This document shows positions 1 through 5,474 of a stretch of DNA of 5,474 nt, piece by piece. Source of the stretch: a virus (taxonomy: Duplodnaviria > Heunggongvirae > Uroviricota > Caudoviricetes); IMG/VR virus record IMGVR_UViG_2684622670_000024, positions 1 to 5,474 of that record. One strand, 5' to 3'. Made by a program: the position numbers and the translations under genes. The notes below the pieces were generated by a model. That model saw only the letters and a list, made by a program, of their open reading frames with translations. It was not told the DNA's origin and did no database searches. Numbering within the stretch: position 1 is the first letter of the stretch; the number at the start of each line of letters is the position of its first letter.

Positions 1-417
1 GATTCACATAACCCACTGATTTTTGTCAGTTAAAAACAAATTTACACGTAGCAATTTATCAAAAGTGATACACCGAATGATATACGGATCGATACACAGC
101 GCCACAATCTCAAAAAAGCACCAGCACAATTAGAAGGCCGCGAGTATACAACATCAGAAACAGGAGAGGGCAAAGCACGTAATAATTTTCGTTTTTCACA
201 AACGCAAAAATTTGGCGAGGCTGGCGGTCCCGGCAACATGAAGCTACATAGATTTTGATCCCCTGCATGGTGATGATGCCCATACAGGGCTATTTCATTT
301 CAACGGAACCAGTATGACGAACATGATCGCACCTTCTCCCGAAAACGGTGCGACCTCCATAGAGGAAATGCCTATTCAGATCCCCGGTGATTTTCACCAT
401 TCAGAATCTGGAGGGTG

Positions 418-433
418 AGTTTTCCAGTTTTCC
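418..433 (+). repeat. Tandem direct repeat AGTTTTCC x2, with related GTTTYC motifs at 582-589, 728-736 and 793-802
   Basis: AGTTTTCC at 418-425 and 426-433. GGTTTCCG (582-589), GGTTTCCCC (728-736) and GGTTTCTTCC (793-802) each lie beside an IHF-consensus site. Confidence 0.4.
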
Positions 434-453
434 CCAATGGGGGATTCTGGAAC

Positions 454-466
454 AATCAACGGGTTA
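454..466 (+). promoter_or_regulatory. IHF core-consensus match (AATCAACGGGTTA), site D
   Basis: Exact fit to WATCARNNNNTTR. The 13-mer is identical to site B except for the first base; it lacks the upstream CGAAAA tract. Confidence 0.4.
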
Positions 467-587
467 CGCCTTACCAGCAAAAAAGCACATCAACTGTAAC
501 GGAAATCGTTATGGCTGCTGGTGGGCCAAATCATCATTACGGTGATGCAGCTATGTAGACGTTCCGGTCTCCTCAAATCGAGGTTTC

Positions 588-606
588 CGAAAATATCAGT
601 GAGTTA
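588..606 (+). promoter_or_regulatory. IHF core-consensus match with upstream A-tract (CGAAAATATCAGTGAGTTA), site A
   Basis: TATCAGTGAGTTA fits WATCARNNNNTTR (R=G); preceded by the CGAAAA tract shared with sites B and C. Confidence 0.45.
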
Positions 607-628
607 GCGATTAAGCTGGCGAGTAATT

Positions 629-651
629 AAACTACGAAAATTTCGTAGTTT
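629..651. repeat. Perfect 23-bp palindrome AAACTACGAAA-A-TTTCGTAGTTT (11-1-11)
   Basis: Arms 629-639 and 641-651 are exact reverse complements. AT-rich; shares CGAAAAT with the IHF-site flank. Looks like a dimeric-protein operator rather than a terminator (no GC-rich stem or U-tract). Confidence 0.6.
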
Positions 652-653
652 GT

Positions 654-672
654 GACTATCTGAAAGATAGTC
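654..672. repeat. Perfect inverted repeat GACTATC-TGAAA-GATAGTC (7-5-7)
   Basis: Arms 654-660 and 666-672 are exact reverse complements; it lies 2 bp from the 23-bp palindrome. Confidence 0.55.
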
Positions 673-703
673 GGTTGATCCGGCCTCAGCCGTTGGCTGT
701 TCC

Positions 704-722
704 CGAAAATATCAACGGGTTA
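704..722 (+). promoter_or_regulatory. IHF core-consensus match with upstream A-tract (CGAAAATATCAACGGGTTA), site B
   Basis: TATCAACGGGTTA is an exact fit to WATCAANNNNTTR; the A-rich 5' flank resembles high-affinity IHF sites. Flanked by the inverted CCCG...CGGG. Confidence 0.5.
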
Positions 723-757
723 GGCTGGTTTCCCCGATGTTCGCCGCTGGCGAATTT

Positions 758-776
758 CGAAAATATCAACCAGTTA
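758..776 (+). promoter_or_regulatory. IHF core-consensus match with upstream A-tract (CGAAAATATCAACCAGTTA), site C
   Basis: TATCAACCAGTTA is an exact fit; it overlaps the 8-bp palindrome TTTCGAAA (755-762) and the stop codon of the 96-aa ORF. Confidence 0.5.
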
Positions 777-1064
777 CCGCCGTAACCGTTCCGGTTTCTT
801 CCAGTGGTAAGTATTTTTCGCGCTCTCCCTCCGTTGCTGAGAACGGCGACGACATGCCAGCAACTCGAGAACTCTGGTTCGTATGTTGCGCATATCCACG
901 CCGTTAAGCTCGATACCGTCACGGCGCATCACCTCAGCCACTACACGCGCGTAATTTTCGGCTATCACGCTGTCCGGCTGCGTGGCCTGTTCGTCATGCT
1001 GCTGGCTGATTCCGGTAACGCGGCGGATTATTTTTAGTAGTTCGGTTTCGCTCATTCTCGTCAT
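774..1064 (-). CDS. Hypothetical protein, translationally coupled to terL; function unknown
   Basis: 96 aa (MTRMSETELLKIIRRVTGISQQHDEQ...RRRSQQRRESAKNTYHWKKPERLRR). ATG at 1062-1064 overlaps the TerL stop (ATGA). Same strand as the operon, helical-looking body with a strongly basic C-terminal tail. I do not recognise a family. Its stop codon (774-776) coincides with the TTA of an IHF-consensus site. Confidence 0.5.
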   Translation of the reverse strand: MTRMSETELLKIIRRVTGISQQHDEQATQPDSVIAENYARVVAEVMRRDGIELNGVDMRNIRTRVLELLACRRRSQQRRESAKNTYHWKKPERLRR

Positions 1065-2722
1065 ACCCCATCAAACGCCGCAAGCCGCTCTTTGTGGCTG
1101 TCGCTTATATCAAATGCAAATTCCTCATGCTCTGCCTGGAATGTGCCAAACGCCATCAGCGCCGCAACGCTCGGATCTATCTTGTTGGATGATTTTTTCT
1201 TGTTCGGCTTGATATTGGCGTTCGCGTCACTCTGCATCACAACATTACTCATTGACCAGGCCAGCACCGGATCACCACGATGCACAATCACCTTCCGGTT
1301 AACAAAAACTTCGAACGATTTCGCCGCCGGACTGAAACGAAGGTATGTTTGCGGGAACGGCTCCACCTCAAATCCTGCGCCCTGTAGCTGCGTCCTCAGG
1401 TGCGTGGCGTTCCATGTATCGAAGCCCACCAGTCTGATATTGAAATTCTCTGCATCCGCCATGATGTCATCGCGGATACGGTCATAATCAATGCAGTCAC
1501 CCGGTGTTGTGCGTATCCAGCCCGCCTTTGCCCACTGGCGATAGATGGCGCGGTTTTTATTGGCGGGGTTCTGTAGCTGAAATTCCGGCAGATAGTGACG
1601 GGAAACCAGCATAATCTTTTTACCGACCGGAAAGGCATAGCACACGCTGGAAATATCGCTGGTTGATGATAAGTCCAGCCCCGCGTAGCACTCCTGCCCG
1701 TATAAATCCGCCTCCGCGAACGTTCCGGCGCACTCCGCCCATGCACCGTTACCCATCCACGGCGTAGCCCCCTGACACCAGATATTGAATCGCTTGGTGA
1801 GCATTTCCACCCACTGCGACGGAATACCCCGCGCTTTCTGGATGGTTGAGGCCAGTTTTTCACGATCGACGGAAACATCGATATTGGGATTCGCCTTTAT
1901 CCACATCGCCGGATCGTCAACCTCGCTTTCATCATCCAGCTCGTAAATAAGCACGAACATGGATTCGTTCACCTCTTCACCATCCAGTATCTGGCAGCAA
2001 TAGTCGTAGTGTTGTTTACAGGCTGAAACAACGTTGCTCCCCGATGTGGTGATGGCAAATAATAACCCCTCCGGACGCGCCCCCATTCCCAGTTCAAGCG
2101 CGGAATAAACCCCGTTGTCAGGGTGCAGGTGATATTCATCCACAATGGCGAGACTCGGGTTTGTCCCCTCAATGGTTGCCGCTTTTGCTGCCAGTGGCTT
2201 TAACAGGCTGTTGGTTTTCGGGTGTATCACCTTGTGCGCCTGAATATTTACCCGCTTTCGTAACGGTCGGGATAAAAGGCACATCTGACGCGCATCATCA
2301 AACACGATCCGCGCCTGATCACGACTCACGGCGGCGGTGTAAATATCCTGCTGCCCGTGTTCCATAACCAGAAACCAGTTAGCCAGGATAGCGGCGACCG
2401 TGGATTTGGCATTTTTTCGCGGTACTTCAATGAATGCGCTGGTGTATTTGCGCCGTCCGGTGGCCTTAACCTTAAAGCCCAGGATGCAGGCAAAGGCGAA
2501 CTGCTGCCACGGCTCCAGCTCAATGGGGCTACCGCGCATTGCGCCTTTTACGTGCGGACACACCCTGGAAAAGGCAATAAACCGCTCCACGACCTCCGGA
2601 TCGAACGTGTAAAGGGGGTTTTCAAGGTCAGAAAAATACCGTTTAACGGCCTGTTTCAGTCGTTTACAGGCCGTAATTTTGCCGTTTTTTACGCCTTCTG
2701 CGTACTCATGCCAGGCGGTCAA
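1061..2722 (-). CDS. terL: Terminase large subunit (ATPase + nuclease)
   Basis: 553 aa. Deviant Walker A (EVPRKNAKST), Walker B (LAIVDEYH, hydrophobic run + DE), and a C-terminal RNase-H-like nuclease region with acidic residues in GLDLSSTSD, VGFDTWNA and KIDPSVAALMA. The only in-frame start candidate after the upstream stop (TAA 2765-2767) is TTG at 2720-2722, preceded by a strong SD (GAGGAAGAGGA) and lying 17 nt inside the 3' end of terS. Stop TGA 1061-1063 overlaps the ATG of the next ORF. Confidence 0.9.
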   Translation of the reverse strand: MTAWHEYAEGVKNGKITACKRLKQAVKRYFSDLENPLYTFDPEVVERFIAFSRVCPHVKGAMRGSPIELEPWQQFAFACILGFKVKATGRRKYTSAFIEVPRKNAKSTVAAILANWFLVMEHGQQDIYTAAVSRDQARIVFDDARQMCLLSRPLRKRVNIQAHKVIHPKTNSLLKPLAAKAATIEGTNPSLAIVDEYHLHPDNGVYSALELGMGARPEGLLFAITTSGSNVVSACKQHYDYCCQILDGEEVNESMFVLIYELDDESEVDDPAMWIKANPNIDVSVDREKLASTIQKARGIPSQWVEMLTKRFNIWCQGATPWMGNGAWAECAGTFAEADLYGQECYAGLDLSSTSDISSVCYAFPVGKKIMLVSRHYLPEFQLQNPANKNRAIYRQWAKAGWIRTTPGDCIDYDRIRDDIMADAENFNIRLVGFDTWNATHLRTQLQGAGFEVEPFPQTYLRFSPAAKSFEVFVNRKVIVHRGDPVLAWSMSNVVMQSDANANIKPNKKKSSNKIDPSVAALMAFGTFQAEHEEFAFDISDSHKERLAAFDGV

Positions 2723-3062
2723 GCTCGTCCTCTTCCTCTGTTTCCGGTGGATTTCTGCGGCGGCTTACCGGGTCAAAACCCAGCAAAGAAGCCATTTTGA
2801 TCATTATTCTTTCTGCGTCAGCCTTTGCGCTCAGGGCGGGGTTTCTGCTCTCGCTGCCCTGACTGTTAACAATGCTGAACCCGCGCGTCGCAAGGTCTTC
2901 GACGGCTTTGCGGTATATAGAGTAGTTAACGCAATACAGTTCCAGATTGCTCCAGTCGGCGGGGGTAAGGTCTTCCCGCCCGGAAAGCTGGCGCGATTTT
3001 TCCTTCCACTGCCTGACCGCGATTTCATCCAGGTAAGCGGGGGCTTTTGGTGGTCTTGCCAT
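2706..3062 (-). CDS. terS: Terminase small subunit, P27-family-like (start placed at the internal ATG 3060-3062; the six-frame ORF extends to an ATG at 3201-3203)
   Basis: From the internal Met the product is 118 aa beginning MARPPKAPAYLDEIAVRQWKE..., which matches the M-x-(G)RPPK N-terminus and size typical of P27-family small terminases. The 47-aa upstream extension (MFSQSLVRPSEGVGEVFRTKPPLPDTDRLLKFLCTGIFLKIIGRKKN) is not protein-like to my eye, but the ATG at 3201-3203 has a better SD (GAGGT, 6-nt spacing) than the ATG at 3060-3062. Acidic C-terminal tail ...PETEEEDELDRLA. Stop TGA at 2706-2708. Confidence 0.7.
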   Translation of the reverse strand: MARPPKAPAYLDEIAVRQWKEKSRQLSGREDLTPADWSNLELYCVNYSIYRKAVEDLATRGFSIVNSQGSESRNPALSAKADAERIMIKMASLLGFDPVSRRRNPPETEEEDELDRLA

Positions 3063-3350
3063 GTTCTTTTTTCGCCCAATTATTTTCAAAAAAATTCCCG
3101 TGCACAAAAATTTGAGGAGGCGGTCGGTGTCCGGCAGGGGCGGTTTCGTCCTGAAAACCTCCCCCACCCCCTCTGACGGCCTCACCAGCGATTGCGAAAA
3201 CATTCCATGACCTCGCGGTCACGGTCGGTTAATCGCTTCGCTGTGGTGCGTTCTGTGCGCTCTGTCCTGTTGGCTTTGTGCCCTGTCTCCTGTGTCTTCC
3301 ATAAGTCACGCTGCCTTATCAGTCCACGTATCAGCCTGTTTTGCTCCTGT
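3063..3350 (-). promoter_or_regulatory. Structured HNH-terS intergenic region; candidate cos / terminase-recognition region
   Basis: About 288 bp non-coding if terS starts at 3062. Contains a CTGT-rich block (eight CTGT in 3241-3350; ACAG(G) on the coding strand), an imperfect dyad GACC-TCGC-GGTC (3209-3220) flanked by inverted AGCGATT (3187-3193) / AATCGCT (3231-3237), and a C5-A-C5 tract (3161-3171). In HK97-like phages cos lies between the HNH gene and terS. Confidence 0.4.
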
Positions 3351-3791
3351 TCAGTCATCATCGCCATACATCCAGTCGTTACGATGTGCCGCCCGTTCTT
3401 CCTGCTCGCGATACATGCCCGCCTTACGGTTCGCTTTCGTGGCTGGATCTTCCCGTGTCGTCTTACGGTTGTGGCACGTCTGGCACAATGCCTGGTGGTT
3501 CCACTCAGGCCAGAAGAGAACATCACCGCCGCCATTGATGGGAATGATGTGATCCACCACAAGAGCTGGCGTATAAATACCCTTAGCCAGACAACGCACG
3601 CATAACGGATTTTTTTTCAGGTACAGGGCGCGGTATTTGTCCCACAGTCGGGAATACCCACGTGCGCGGCGGTGTCCCCGTCTGGCATCCTCTGCACGCC
3701 ATGCAGCCCGCCTGTGCTCTTCACACTTGCCGGACTTCACGCGCTTATTACAGCCCGGCTCAGTGCATCGCCTTAATGGTTGCCATGGCAT
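3351..3791 (-). CDS. HNH endonuclease, terminase-associated type
   Basis: 146 aa; N-terminal Cys cluster (RCTEPGCNKRV...GKCEEH) and a classic HNH core (VVDHIIPINGGGD ... WNHQALCQTCHNRKT). It sits immediately upstream of the small terminase, the arrangement known for HNH proteins that assist cos-cleaving terminases in HK97-like phages. Possible SD GGGGGTG about 7 nt upstream of the ATG. Confidence 0.88.
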   Translation of the reverse strand: MPWQPLRRCTEPGCNKRVKSGKCEEHRRAAWRAEDARRGHRRARGYSRLWDKYRALYLKKNPLCVRCLAKGIYTPALVVDHIIPINGGGDVLFWPEWNHQALCQTCHNRKTTREDPATKANRKAGMYREQEERAAHRNDWMYGDDD

Positions 3792-4087
3792 CAGTACACC
3801 CCCACATCACGATAAACCGACCAGAGCGCGGAAATCGTCAGGGGAATTTCTTTTGTATCGGTATCGCCAAGCGTTGTCCGGTACTCGTACAGTTGCGAGA
3901 TATACATCAGGCAACCAATTTTTATTGCAGGGGTAAATTCCAGGCCGTCATCAAAACGCCTGCCAATATGCTTCTGGCATACCTCCAGCGCCGCGCTTAT
4001 GTATGCCTGAATCAGTGTGTCTTCTGTGTTACCATCTATGCGGCAGTGAAGTTTGGCCTCTTCCAGGGTTATTTTTTCTGCTGTCAT
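3791..4087 (-). CDS. Phage gp6-like head-tail connector protein
   Basis: 98 aa; N-terminal ...ITLEEAKLHCRIDGNTEDTLIQAYISAALEVCQKHIGR... fits the gp6-like connector pattern (L-E-x-A-K-x-H-x-R-I-D, then D/E-D-x-L-I-x-x-Y-I-x-A-A). ATG 4085-4087 overlaps the upstream stop; stop TGA 3791-3793 shares one base with the HNH ATG (3789-3791; TGATG junction on the coding strand). Confidence 0.78.
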   Translation of the reverse strand: MTAEKITLEEAKLHCRIDGNTEDTLIQAYISAALEVCQKHIGRRFDDGLEFTPAIKIGCLMYISQLYEYRTTLGDTDTKEIPLTISALWSVYRDVGVY

Positions 4088-4422
4088 TTTTCTGTACCCA
4101 CCTTTGCCAGAATTTCCAGCCGGGTTCTTTTCGCATCAGGTAAGGGGATCCCGATGATATTAAGCGTGCTCCCGGCAAAAGCGCCGGTAAGCACTTTCAG
4201 GCGACTGGCGGCGGATATGTCGCCACGATAGCGAACCCATACCCGAATCGTTGCAGGTGCGGTTTCTGCGCCTGCGGTCAGCAATTCCCGTCCGCTGATC
4301 CCCTTGACCTCTGCCCAGATGGTTTCCCCTTCCGTCCATATCTGCTGGATCGCACCTGACGGCAGGCGCTGTGTGGTAAATGTCATAATCGTCACCCGGT
4401 CCCGCATCTTTCCGGCTATCAT
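4084..4422 (-). CDS. Phage head-closure / head-tail adaptor protein (head-tail joining family)
   Basis: 112 aa; N-terminal MxxGKMRDRVTI... is the signature opening of head-tail joining/head-closure proteins as I recall them. ATG at 4420-4422 overlaps the portal stop (ATGA arrangement); its own stop TGA at 4084-4086 overlaps the next ATG (4085-4087). Confidence 0.75.
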   Translation of the reverse strand: MIAGKMRDRVTIMTFTTQRLPSGAIQQIWTEGETIWAEVKGISGRELLTAGAETAPATIRVWVRYRGDISAASRLKVLTGAFAGSTLNIIGIPLPDAKRTRLEILAKVGTEK

Positions 4423-5474
4423 TCGTCACCGCCCTTACTGTTCTTGCTGATTGTCACTTCCTGCTTCCATGCCTGGCTGAACTCGTCACCACCTTCACGC
4501 GGCGGCATCCCCTCACGCTCACGGGCTTCGTTCGGATTCATGATCCCGTTCTTAATCCCTTTCTCATACGTGGCGTAACGTTCGGTAGGGGTGGCGCGCA
4601 GTAAATCGGCTGAATCAAACTCAACCAGATAACGGGTACCAGGTACGGGAGAAGCCATCAGCAAAGCAGCCTTGATTTGCTGTTCGAAGTTCGCCAGCCA
4701 CGGGCGCATTGTCATGGTCAGAAACGCGCGGCTTGCCTCACTGAAATTGCTGTAGGTGCTGTTGCTGTATTCCTGAAGAAAAATCGGCGACACGTTGAAC
4801 ATACGAGCAATGTCTTCAATGGAGAAGCGACGGGAGGCCAGCCATTCCGCATCCTGGTTACTCATCCCCAGTTGCTTGTAATCCATGCCCCCTTCAAGGA
4901 TTGGCGTTTTTCCGGCATTTTTCGCCCCCTTATAGCGTTCCAGAGCATCTAATGCCTGTTTACCTTTCACGCCGTCCAGCCATTCGCCTGACGTGATAAT
5001 CCCTGCCGCCATCATGCCATCTTTCATAATGCTGGCTCCGTGACGCTGTTGAGCAAGGCCAAGCCCAAGTGCCTCACGGCAAATCGTGACAGGGGAGCGC
5101 CCCAGAAAGCCATCATCCGAGGCATAGCGGAGATGCAGAACTTCTTCCTGTAAATACGTGCGCACCGTTCCTGTATAGGGTTCGGTGATGGTATAGCGGT
5201 ATTTGTGTGCGCCTGTGCGTTCCGGTACAACACAACCCGGTGCATAAGGATGAAGTGATTTTGGCTGACCGTCCCGCCCCCACTCAATAACCGCATAGGC
5301 GTTACCGTTCAGCAGGCAGTGACGCATCATTGTGCGTTTAAACTGGTAAGGTGTCTGGCATGAATTTGGCTGCTCATTCAGCAGAATATCTACCGGGTGA
5401 CTGTCCAGCCATTCCCGCGCCTCCCTGCCCTTGTCATTACGTACCAGATACAGATAACACGGCATCGTGGCCAC
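4419..5474 (-). CDS. Phage portal protein (HK97-family-like), 5'-partial; the ORF runs off the right edge of the window, so the true N-terminus is not in view
   Basis: 351 aa visible. Central and C-terminal segments (e.g. ...DAEWLASRRFSIEDIARMFNVSPIFLQEYSNSTYSNFSEASRAFLTMTMRPWLANFEQQI... and ...RYLVEFDSADLLRATPTERYATYEKGIKNGIMNPNEAREREGMPP...) match what I recall of the conserved core and C-terminal region of HK97-type portal proteins. Stop TGA at 4419-4421 overlaps the next gene's ATG (4420-4422). The first codon in the window is GTG, which is not the real start. Confidence 0.82.
   Translation of the reverse strand: MATMPCYLYLVRNDKGREAREWLDSHPVDILLNEQPNSCQTPYQFKRTMMRHCLLNGNAYAVIEWGRDGQPKSLHPYAPGCVVPERTGAHKYRYTITEPYTGTVRTYLQEEVLHLRYASDDGFLGRSPVTICREALGLGLAQQRHGASIMKDGMMAAGIITSGEWLDGVKGKQALDALERYKGAKNAGKTPILEGGMDYKQLGMSNQDAEWLASRRFSIEDIARMFNVSPIFLQEYSNSTYSNFSEASRAFLTMTMRPWLANFEQQIKAALLMASPVPGTRYLVEFDSADLLRATPTERYATYEKGIKNGIMNPNEAREREGMPPREGGDEFSQAWKQEVTISKNSKGGDE

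Follow-up and report, generated by a model that had tools for sequence, protein, structure and literature searches.

Two palindromes in a capsid-forming satellite lie within an array of putative protein-binding dyads and IHF sites related to phage roi and antirepressor genes

The DNA analyzed here (the window; 5,474 nucleotides, positions 1 to 5,474 of the IMG/VR virus record IMGVR_UViG_2684622670_000024) is the distal end of a capsid-forming PICI-type (cf-PICI) satellite located between hpt and gcd. Near-identical DNA was found between these two genes in E. coli chromosomes, where the island measures about 15 kb and has the layout int-alpA-rep-capsid-portal-HNH-terS-terL. It codes for an integrase, AlpA, an Icd-like protein, an AAA_25 helicase, SSB, a ProQ/FinO protein, a capsid protein, and a protease. 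A Pfam search of the island found no Rha, Roi, ANT, or Bro-N protein encoded there. The capsid-forming PICI family has been described previously (bioRxiv 10.1101/2022.09.08.507074). All genes of the window lie on the minus strand: portal, two head-tail connectors, HNH endonuclease, a 61-aa ORF, P27-type TerS, TerL, and a 96-aa ORF. The boundary of the island is given by the att core TTAAAAACAAAT (30-41), which is present as a direct repeat at the int-proximal island end (L001 26823, L002 31321). An IHF-consensus site, AATCAGTGGGTTA, abuts the core on the minus strand (9-21). Three plus-strand GATAYAC repeats with 12-nt spacing (63-100) are probable arm-type sites of the integrase, and such repeats were seen on both arms of the island, also beside int (L001 26640-26680). 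In the part of the island outside the window, a ProQ/FinO-family RNA-binding protein and an Icd-like protein are encoded at L002 23864-24406 and 27768-27971.

The last gene of the late operon (774-1064, minus strand) encodes the 96-aa protein (phrog_1561), which is all-helical with a basic C-terminus and has more than 1000 homologues in enterobacteria. Pfam, PDB sequence, and fold comparisons of this protein returned no family and no match, and no DNA-binding fold was detected. At its stop codon, a minus-strand hairpin (771-788) followed by GUUGAUAUUUUCG forms a weak terminator-like site of the late operon; the variants of this hairpin in relatives keep G.U pairs on the minus strand. In several satellite types, the gene always precedes a non-coding array of dyads and IHF sites, and the two together make up a module common to satellites at other att sites (yifB, yejO, allC, and phoQ). 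The satellites sharing it have other packaging modules (capsid, decoration protein, and TerS) or no terminase genes. The array was found in about one quarter of complete E. coli genomes, at 1-7 places per genome.

Two palindromes lie in this array, about 590 bp inside the island as counted from the att core. Palindrome 1 (H1, AAACTACGAAAATTTCGTAGTTT, 629-651) is a perfect 23-bp palindrome, as given in the preliminary description of this DNA; it reads AAACTACGAAA-A-TTTCGTAGTTT, and its 11-nt arms are 100% complementary. Palindrome 2 (H2, 654-672) had been described as a 7-5-7 inverted repeat, GACTATC-TGAAA-GATAGTC. The repeat is present, but it is in fact a perfect 8-3-8 dyad, GACTATCT-GAA-AGATAGTC. 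Both had been considered rare by chance, which is correct for H1, as only 2 of 300 dinucleotide-shuffled versions of the whole window gave a stem of at least 11 bp, but not for H2, because an 8-bp stem arose in about 46% of them. The perfection of H1 depends on the lineage. It is perfect in some lineages, such as the phoQ satellite of O157:H7, and has 1-2 transitions in others, with AAACTGCGAAA or AAACTGTGAAA in the left arm of many relatives. The H1 segment was found in 415 of 5,426 complete E. coli genomes, and H1 together with H2 in 22 only.

The surroundings are also rich in dyads. The region 290-790 contains 14 stem matches of at least 5 bp, against 3.2 ± 2.1 expected (0 of 500 shuffles reached 14), and coding DNA gave 1.6 stem matches per 500 nt in comparison. 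The further dyads noted earlier at 687-699, 741-753, and 773-786 were all recovered, the second one spanning 740-754. The IHF sites A and B, said to flank the palindromes, are exact matches to WATCARNNNNTTR at 594-606 and 710-722. More matches to this consensus were found at 454-466, 764-776, and 9-21 (minus strand), so that the window holds five, all within 1-776, against 0.32 expected; no shuffle reached five. Both strands of the array region fold far better than shuffled sequences (z of -7.1 for the plus and -5.3 for the minus strand). The mismatches found in the stems are balanced, with 23 of G.T type and 24 of A.C type, and thus give no strand bias and no sign of selection on a single RNA strand.

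The array extends over about 420-790 and contains four plus-strand units of about 45 nt, each with a variable dyad of 4-6 bp and a perfect IHF consensus. Unit 1 (423-470) consists of the dyad TCCCCAATGGGGGA (431-444) and the IHF consensus AATCAACGGGTTA (454-466). The corresponding elements are CCTCAAATCGAGG (571-583) and TATCAGTGAGTTA (594-606) in unit 2 (563-612), CAGCCGTTGGCTG (687-699) and TATCAACGGGTTA (710-722) in unit 3 (679-725), and TTCGCCGCTGGCGAA (740-754) and TATCAACCAGTTA (764-776) in unit 4 (733-779). In all four units, the dyad is located 8-12 nt upstream of the WATCAANNNNTTR site; H1 and H2 do not keep this spacing to an IHF site. Comparison of about 60 loci from E. coli genomes and IMG/VR gave the unit consensus CCGR-N3-[5-7 bp stem, A/T-rich loop]-TTYCGRAAA-WATCAR-NNNN-TTA. 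At these loci, the stems differ completely between units, yet they are always complementary, which amounts to full covariation. Examples are CAGCC/GGCTG, CCTCA/TGAGG, TTCGCC/GGCGAA, TCCCCC/GGGGGA, TCCACC/GGTGGA, CCTGC/GCAGG, and AACGCA/TGCGTT. The region as a whole is a mosaic, in which the units and other palindromic "words" are shuffled among satellites.

Other arrangements were observed in the end regions of relatives. In some of them (L150, L211, L148, L220, and others), there is a conserved block of about 130 nt with four hairpins, CGATACCC..GGGTATCG, GAGTAAGCCCC..., ACTACCCAAACTACGGGTAGTTTCCGTAGTTT, and GAGTTGCAGATCTGCAACTC, in which two mutually exclusive pairings reuse the H1 words AAACTACG/CGTAGTTT. 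This block had no match in Rfam. The unit hairpin AAAGCCCGAAAAAGGGCTTT of L005 and L194 closely resembles what we take to be the lambda nutR boxB, GCCCTGAAAAAGGGC, and a few dyads presumably recall the lambda ori iterons and boxB/nut. The homology to roi described below accounts for the units better than these likenesses do. In the terminal region of another group of relatives (L146, L155, L156, L159, L195, L219, and L003), TAACCCGC iterons, three direct and three inverted, flank an AT-rich stretch. PICI replication origins of this architecture have been published, and they adjoin rep (PMC6092414). A PICI origin was rejected for the present locus, as the iteron and AT-rich structures of these relatives are absent from the window.

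The comparison of unit 2 with a phage collection gave 286 matching records, at 82-87% over 45-50 nt and with a best E value of 1e-5. The matches fall inside genes annotated as roi, "anti-repressor Ant", KilA, or "DNA-binding protein Roi", and the phages include HK620, HK75, H-19B, many Stx phages, and the P1-like phage D6. Unit 4 matches the Roi-like "DNA-binding protein" gene of Stx2 phages. The homologous phage segment of about 45 nt encodes residues ~40-56, in the Rha-like N-terminal domain, and is organized like the satellite units: a dyad, about 10 nt, and the IHF consensus. These elements are CCTCAAaTTGAGG and AATCAATAACTTA in HK620/HK75, CGCCAaTGGCG and AATCAACAACTTA in Stx2_EH2201, CCTCCAaTGGAGG and TATCAATAACTTA in D6, and CTGCAtTGCAG and AATCAATGATTTA in HK022 roi. 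The phage dyads differ by compensatory changes, and the residues of the HTH recognition helix differ as well, in a comparison of four alleles only. A scan for further roi homologues gave near-identical genes of the HK620 type only. The dyads of the HK620 and HK022 types recur exactly in satellite units, and a variant of the Stx type recurs there too.

The HTH protein Roi reportedly binds a site in its own gene that is closely linked to an IHF site, and IHF is said to stabilize this binding. The candidate Roi and IHF sites of HK022 roi are CTGCATTGCAG and AATCAATGATTTA. The intragenic site of HK022 resembles the satellite units in having a short dyad followed, after about 10 nt, by a perfect IHF consensus and in its homology to units 2 and 4. 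It differs in that the satellite modules are non-coding, stand four in tandem with different dyads, and belong to an island that encodes no Roi-like protein; H1 and H2, moreover, are not of the dyad and IHF type. The conceptual translation of window positions 627-785 aligns to Roi residues 34-56, with peptide E values of 1e-4. This frame is broken in other satellites, and the units are therefore non-coding derivatives. In the window itself, 627-785 of the plus strand can be read as a stop-free frame, LNYENFVVCDYLKDSRLIRPQPLAVPENINGLGWFPRCSPLANFENINQLPP followed by a stop, in which H1, H2, and units 3-4 resemble shuffled pieces of the Roi/Ant wing region.

The 17-mer core of H1, CTACGAAAATTTCGTAG, is present exactly in more than 119 IMG/VR contigs, many of them 40-50-kb prophages. 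Its sequence contexts are unrelated, and it was seen in both orientations. A search of the genome contigs for related loci found none, and scanning them with the 17-mer gave chance matches. Non-coding copies of the core adjoin P22_AR_N, Bro-N, Rha, AntA/B, ORF6N, or KilA-N genes. The coding copies lie in ANT/KilAC antirepressor genes, including those of Stx2a phages and P1-like ant1/ant2, and encode NYENFVV. For these genes, we used a sample of 79 ant homologues, drawn by patterns away from the palindrome site. All 13 distinct ant sequences with NYENFVV are identical over 26 nt, TTAAACTACGAAAATTTCGTAGTTGG, and the flanking codons vary synonymously. Where homologues encode a different peptide here, they have a different palindrome, either ACCGGAAAAAAATTCCGGT or GTCGCGGAAAACTTTTACGTGAC, so that three different palindromes are found at one codon position of homologous genes. 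The identity over 26 nt amid varying flanks and the presence of other palindromes in homologues indicate that the palindrome itself, and not the peptide, is conserved. GTCGCGGAAAACTTTTACGTGAC is also present in satellite end regions. In P1 and D6, icd is located directly upstream of ant, the gene carrying H1 or unit-type sites.

H1 of the satellite has the exact 17-mer and shares AATTAAAC...GTAGTT with the version in ant genes, up to 26 nt in all. It starts 22 nt past the IHF site of unit 2, which corresponds to the order of the dyad/IHF and YE(H/N)(Y/F)V segments in Roi-family genes. H1 thus has the core of the ANT/KilAC internal palindrome, which is conserved beyond coding need. Unlike the palindrome of these genes, it is free-standing and non-coding, and neither the window nor the island contains an antirepressor-type gene in or beside which it could lie. 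H2 is of another kind. Exact copies of it were found in eight IMG/VR contigs only, and those examined are satellite end regions with H1 directly upstream. Its 19-mer had no match in the phage collection, and the phage genes have nothing that corresponds to it. Elsewhere among the satellites, CGTAGTTTGTGA is followed by different sequences in this slot, some of them again palindromic, e.g., GAATATATTC. H2 is a lineage-specific occupant of a variable position.

The palindromes had been proposed to be operators of dimeric regulators, or binding sites of a recombination directionality factor or terminase. A protein-binding dyad at the DNA level is still the best reading of them, but none of the three specific roles was supported. 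An operator set should recur, and within the window, as well as across the full 15 kb of the island, no further copy of an H1 or H2 half-site was found, which leaves no such set. In addition, no sigma-70-like promoter was found in 1-1200, nor any terminator-like site besides the stop-codon hairpin of the last gene. A classical HTH operator set was rejected on these grounds. The related idea of sites for a regulator of the satellite itself, such as AlpA, the 96-aa ORF product, or an unannotated protein, which would control transcription into att/int after circularization, has some appeal. Perfect dyads are suitable targets for dimeric proteins, the array is never without the 96-aa ORF, and by geometry minus-strand transcription through the array would enter int in the circular form. 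We consider it quite unlikely, given the single-copy half-sites, the lack of promoter-like sites, a 96-aa protein with no detectable DNA-binding fold or family, and the wide occurrence of H1 in phages that lack this ORF; the Pfam result for the island likewise argues against an element-encoded binder of the Roi/Ant type. Sites for a directionality factor or for terminase (cos/pac) would fit with the flanking IHF sites, which occur in att arms and in lambda cosB. Such a role is nevertheless very improbable. A large distance separates the palindromes from the att core and from the Int arm sites at 63-100, and the module is common to satellites with different integrases and does not co-vary with integrase type. 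As to packaging, no lambda-type cosN was found, cos1/cos2 of EcCICFT073 are unrelated, and the module is also present where terminase genes are not. For a related Klebsiella cf-PICI (LR881103), the end of the linear record falls in the HNH-terS gap, immediately after the conserved minus-strand GGGGTGGGGGAGGTTTTCAGGAC, a position equivalent to about 3147/3148 of the window, between the HNH-linked 61-aa ORF and terS. The cos of the present satellite is, on this sequence comparison, most likely in the same gap, at 3063-3181 (about 3137-3175). Mimicry of CRISPR repeats (an RNA anti-CRISPR) was rejected too, as the best match to type I-E/I-F repeats of the host had 9 mismatches in 28, the level of control DNA.

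A second group of explanations concerns RNA and recombination. The dyads might act as RNA hairpins, either in an ncRNA of their own or as part of a structured 3' UTR at the end of the minus-strand late operon, and would then be exonuclease barriers or weak terminators comparable to REP/BIME (RIB/RIP) elements. The array is directly downstream of the last gene, with a terminator-like hairpin and U-rich tail at the stop codon. The covariation of the stems fits selection for structure, a few variants of H1 would allow G.U pairs on the plus strand, and the very favorable folding (z of -7.1 and -5.3) makes an RNA role possible. We still judge it improbable, since the mismatch types show no strand bias, no promoter was found, and Rfam gave no family in the window or its relatives. 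The stems of H1 and H2 are AT-rich and lack U-runs (their tails are UUUGUG and GGUUGA), and the terminator scan reported neither of them, in agreement with the earlier statement that they are not intrinsic terminators. Furthermore, the exact identity of H1 in both orientations and in coding sequences of unrelated genes speaks for sequence-specific recognition rather than for structure alone. The array could also be debris of recombination, that is, fragments of helper roi/ant genes acquired by illegitimate or short-homology recombination, with the palindromes as junctions or hotspots that have no role in the satellite. The translation of units into Roi-like peptides in a frame broken in relatives points in this direction. 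So does the highly mosaic character of the region, with breakpoints right after H1 (compare the 415 genomes with H1 to the 22 with both palindromes) and mosaic junctions at H1 in phage contexts too. Debris would not be expected to keep only the site-bearing segment of about 45 nt and multiply it 4-6 times per satellite while always lacking the rest of roi, which is strongly conserved. It also fits poorly with compensatory changes that preserve dyad symmetry, with conserved positions that are exactly the IHF consensus, with the fixed position of the array after the last gene in many satellite types, and with the perfect palindrome H2, for which roi genes offer no palindromic equivalent. This explanation therefore seems unlikely to us.

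On the sequence comparisons, the best-supported reading takes H1 and the four units, and probably H2 as well, for putative protein-binding dyads that act at the DNA level and derive from cis-sites of helper Roi/antirepressor genes. The array would have been built from copies of cis-acting sites located in or beside the Roi/antirepressor genes of helper-type temperate phages. Palindrome 1 would exactly reproduce the one inside antirepressor genes of the ANT/KilAC type, and palindrome 2 would be a satellite-specific dyad in the adjoining variable slot. With no Rha, Roi, ANT, or Bro-N protein encoded in the island, a helper phage would have to supply the binders. During helper growth, Roi/Ant-family proteins of the helper and host IHF would assemble on the array, the former occupying the dyads as dimers. 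The resulting nucleoprotein complex would be bent and would lie between att/int and the end of the late operon. As for the outcome of binding, we purely infer that the complex may serve as a helper-dependent roadblock or insulator, the array being situated between the late operon and att/int in the circular form; alternatively, it may sense the helper or, as a decoy, titrate Roi/Ant proteins. Several observations stand against the reading of the palindromes as copied binding sites: H1 and H2 have no IHF site at unit spacing, H2 has no phage-gene counterpart, and H1 is imperfect in many relatives. Overall, we give slightly less than an even chance to the palindromes being part of an array of putative binding sites that were copied from helper-phage Roi/Ant genes and act together with IHF.

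The array may be compared with known systems other than roi. The RIB/RIP (BIME) elements of E. coli are reportedly found at operon 3' ends and consist of an IHF site with REP hairpins on either side. Like them, the array combines hairpin-forming dyads and IHF sites just downstream of a transcription unit. Unlike them, it is confined to satellites, its units share homology with the coding DNA of phage roi, and its dyads differ by eye from what we take to be the REP consensus. The lambda cosB (R3-I1-R2-R1) and att arms are similar in that protein-binding repeats, putative in the case of the array, are interleaved with IHF bends; the array differs in having no cosN or terminase linkage and in lying too far from the att core. 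Roi of phage HK022 has been described as a DNA-binding protein (Clerget & Boccard 1996, J Bacteriol 178:4077). A search of a limited collection of papers found no description of the present palindromes or of those in ANT genes, nor of a link between Roi, IHF, and satellites, and the one PICI paper that mentions IHF leaves this region uncovered. The intragenic Roi/IHF site is thus already known, and its multiplication and diversification in satellites, as well as the palindromes of ANT genes, appear to be undescribed.

Palindromes that are conserved at the DNA level within phage coding sequence, with compensatory variation, are an apparently overlooked feature of these genes, and they suggest that many genes of the Bro/KilA/Rha/ANT family contain autoregulatory or cis-acting sites. 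The distal ends of enterobacterial phage satellites might further hold a "library" of operator mimics, with IHF-paired units that would be copies of the self-binding sites of several helper Roi and ANT/KilAC alleles; we regard this as possible but rather doubtful. If true, the library would enable a satellite to sense, exploit, or titrate the Roi/Ant proteins of any lambdoid helper that infects the cell, and it would be a DNA decoy or sensor array, an undescribed kind of satellite-helper interface. The means by which Gram-negative PICIs and cf-PICIs sense and manipulate their helpers are only partly understood, and the array offers a concrete and testable link. If it binds helper proteins, it would represent a new mode of interaction between satellite and helper, and would provide a handle on the obscure function of Roi/Ant proteins and their dependence on IHF.
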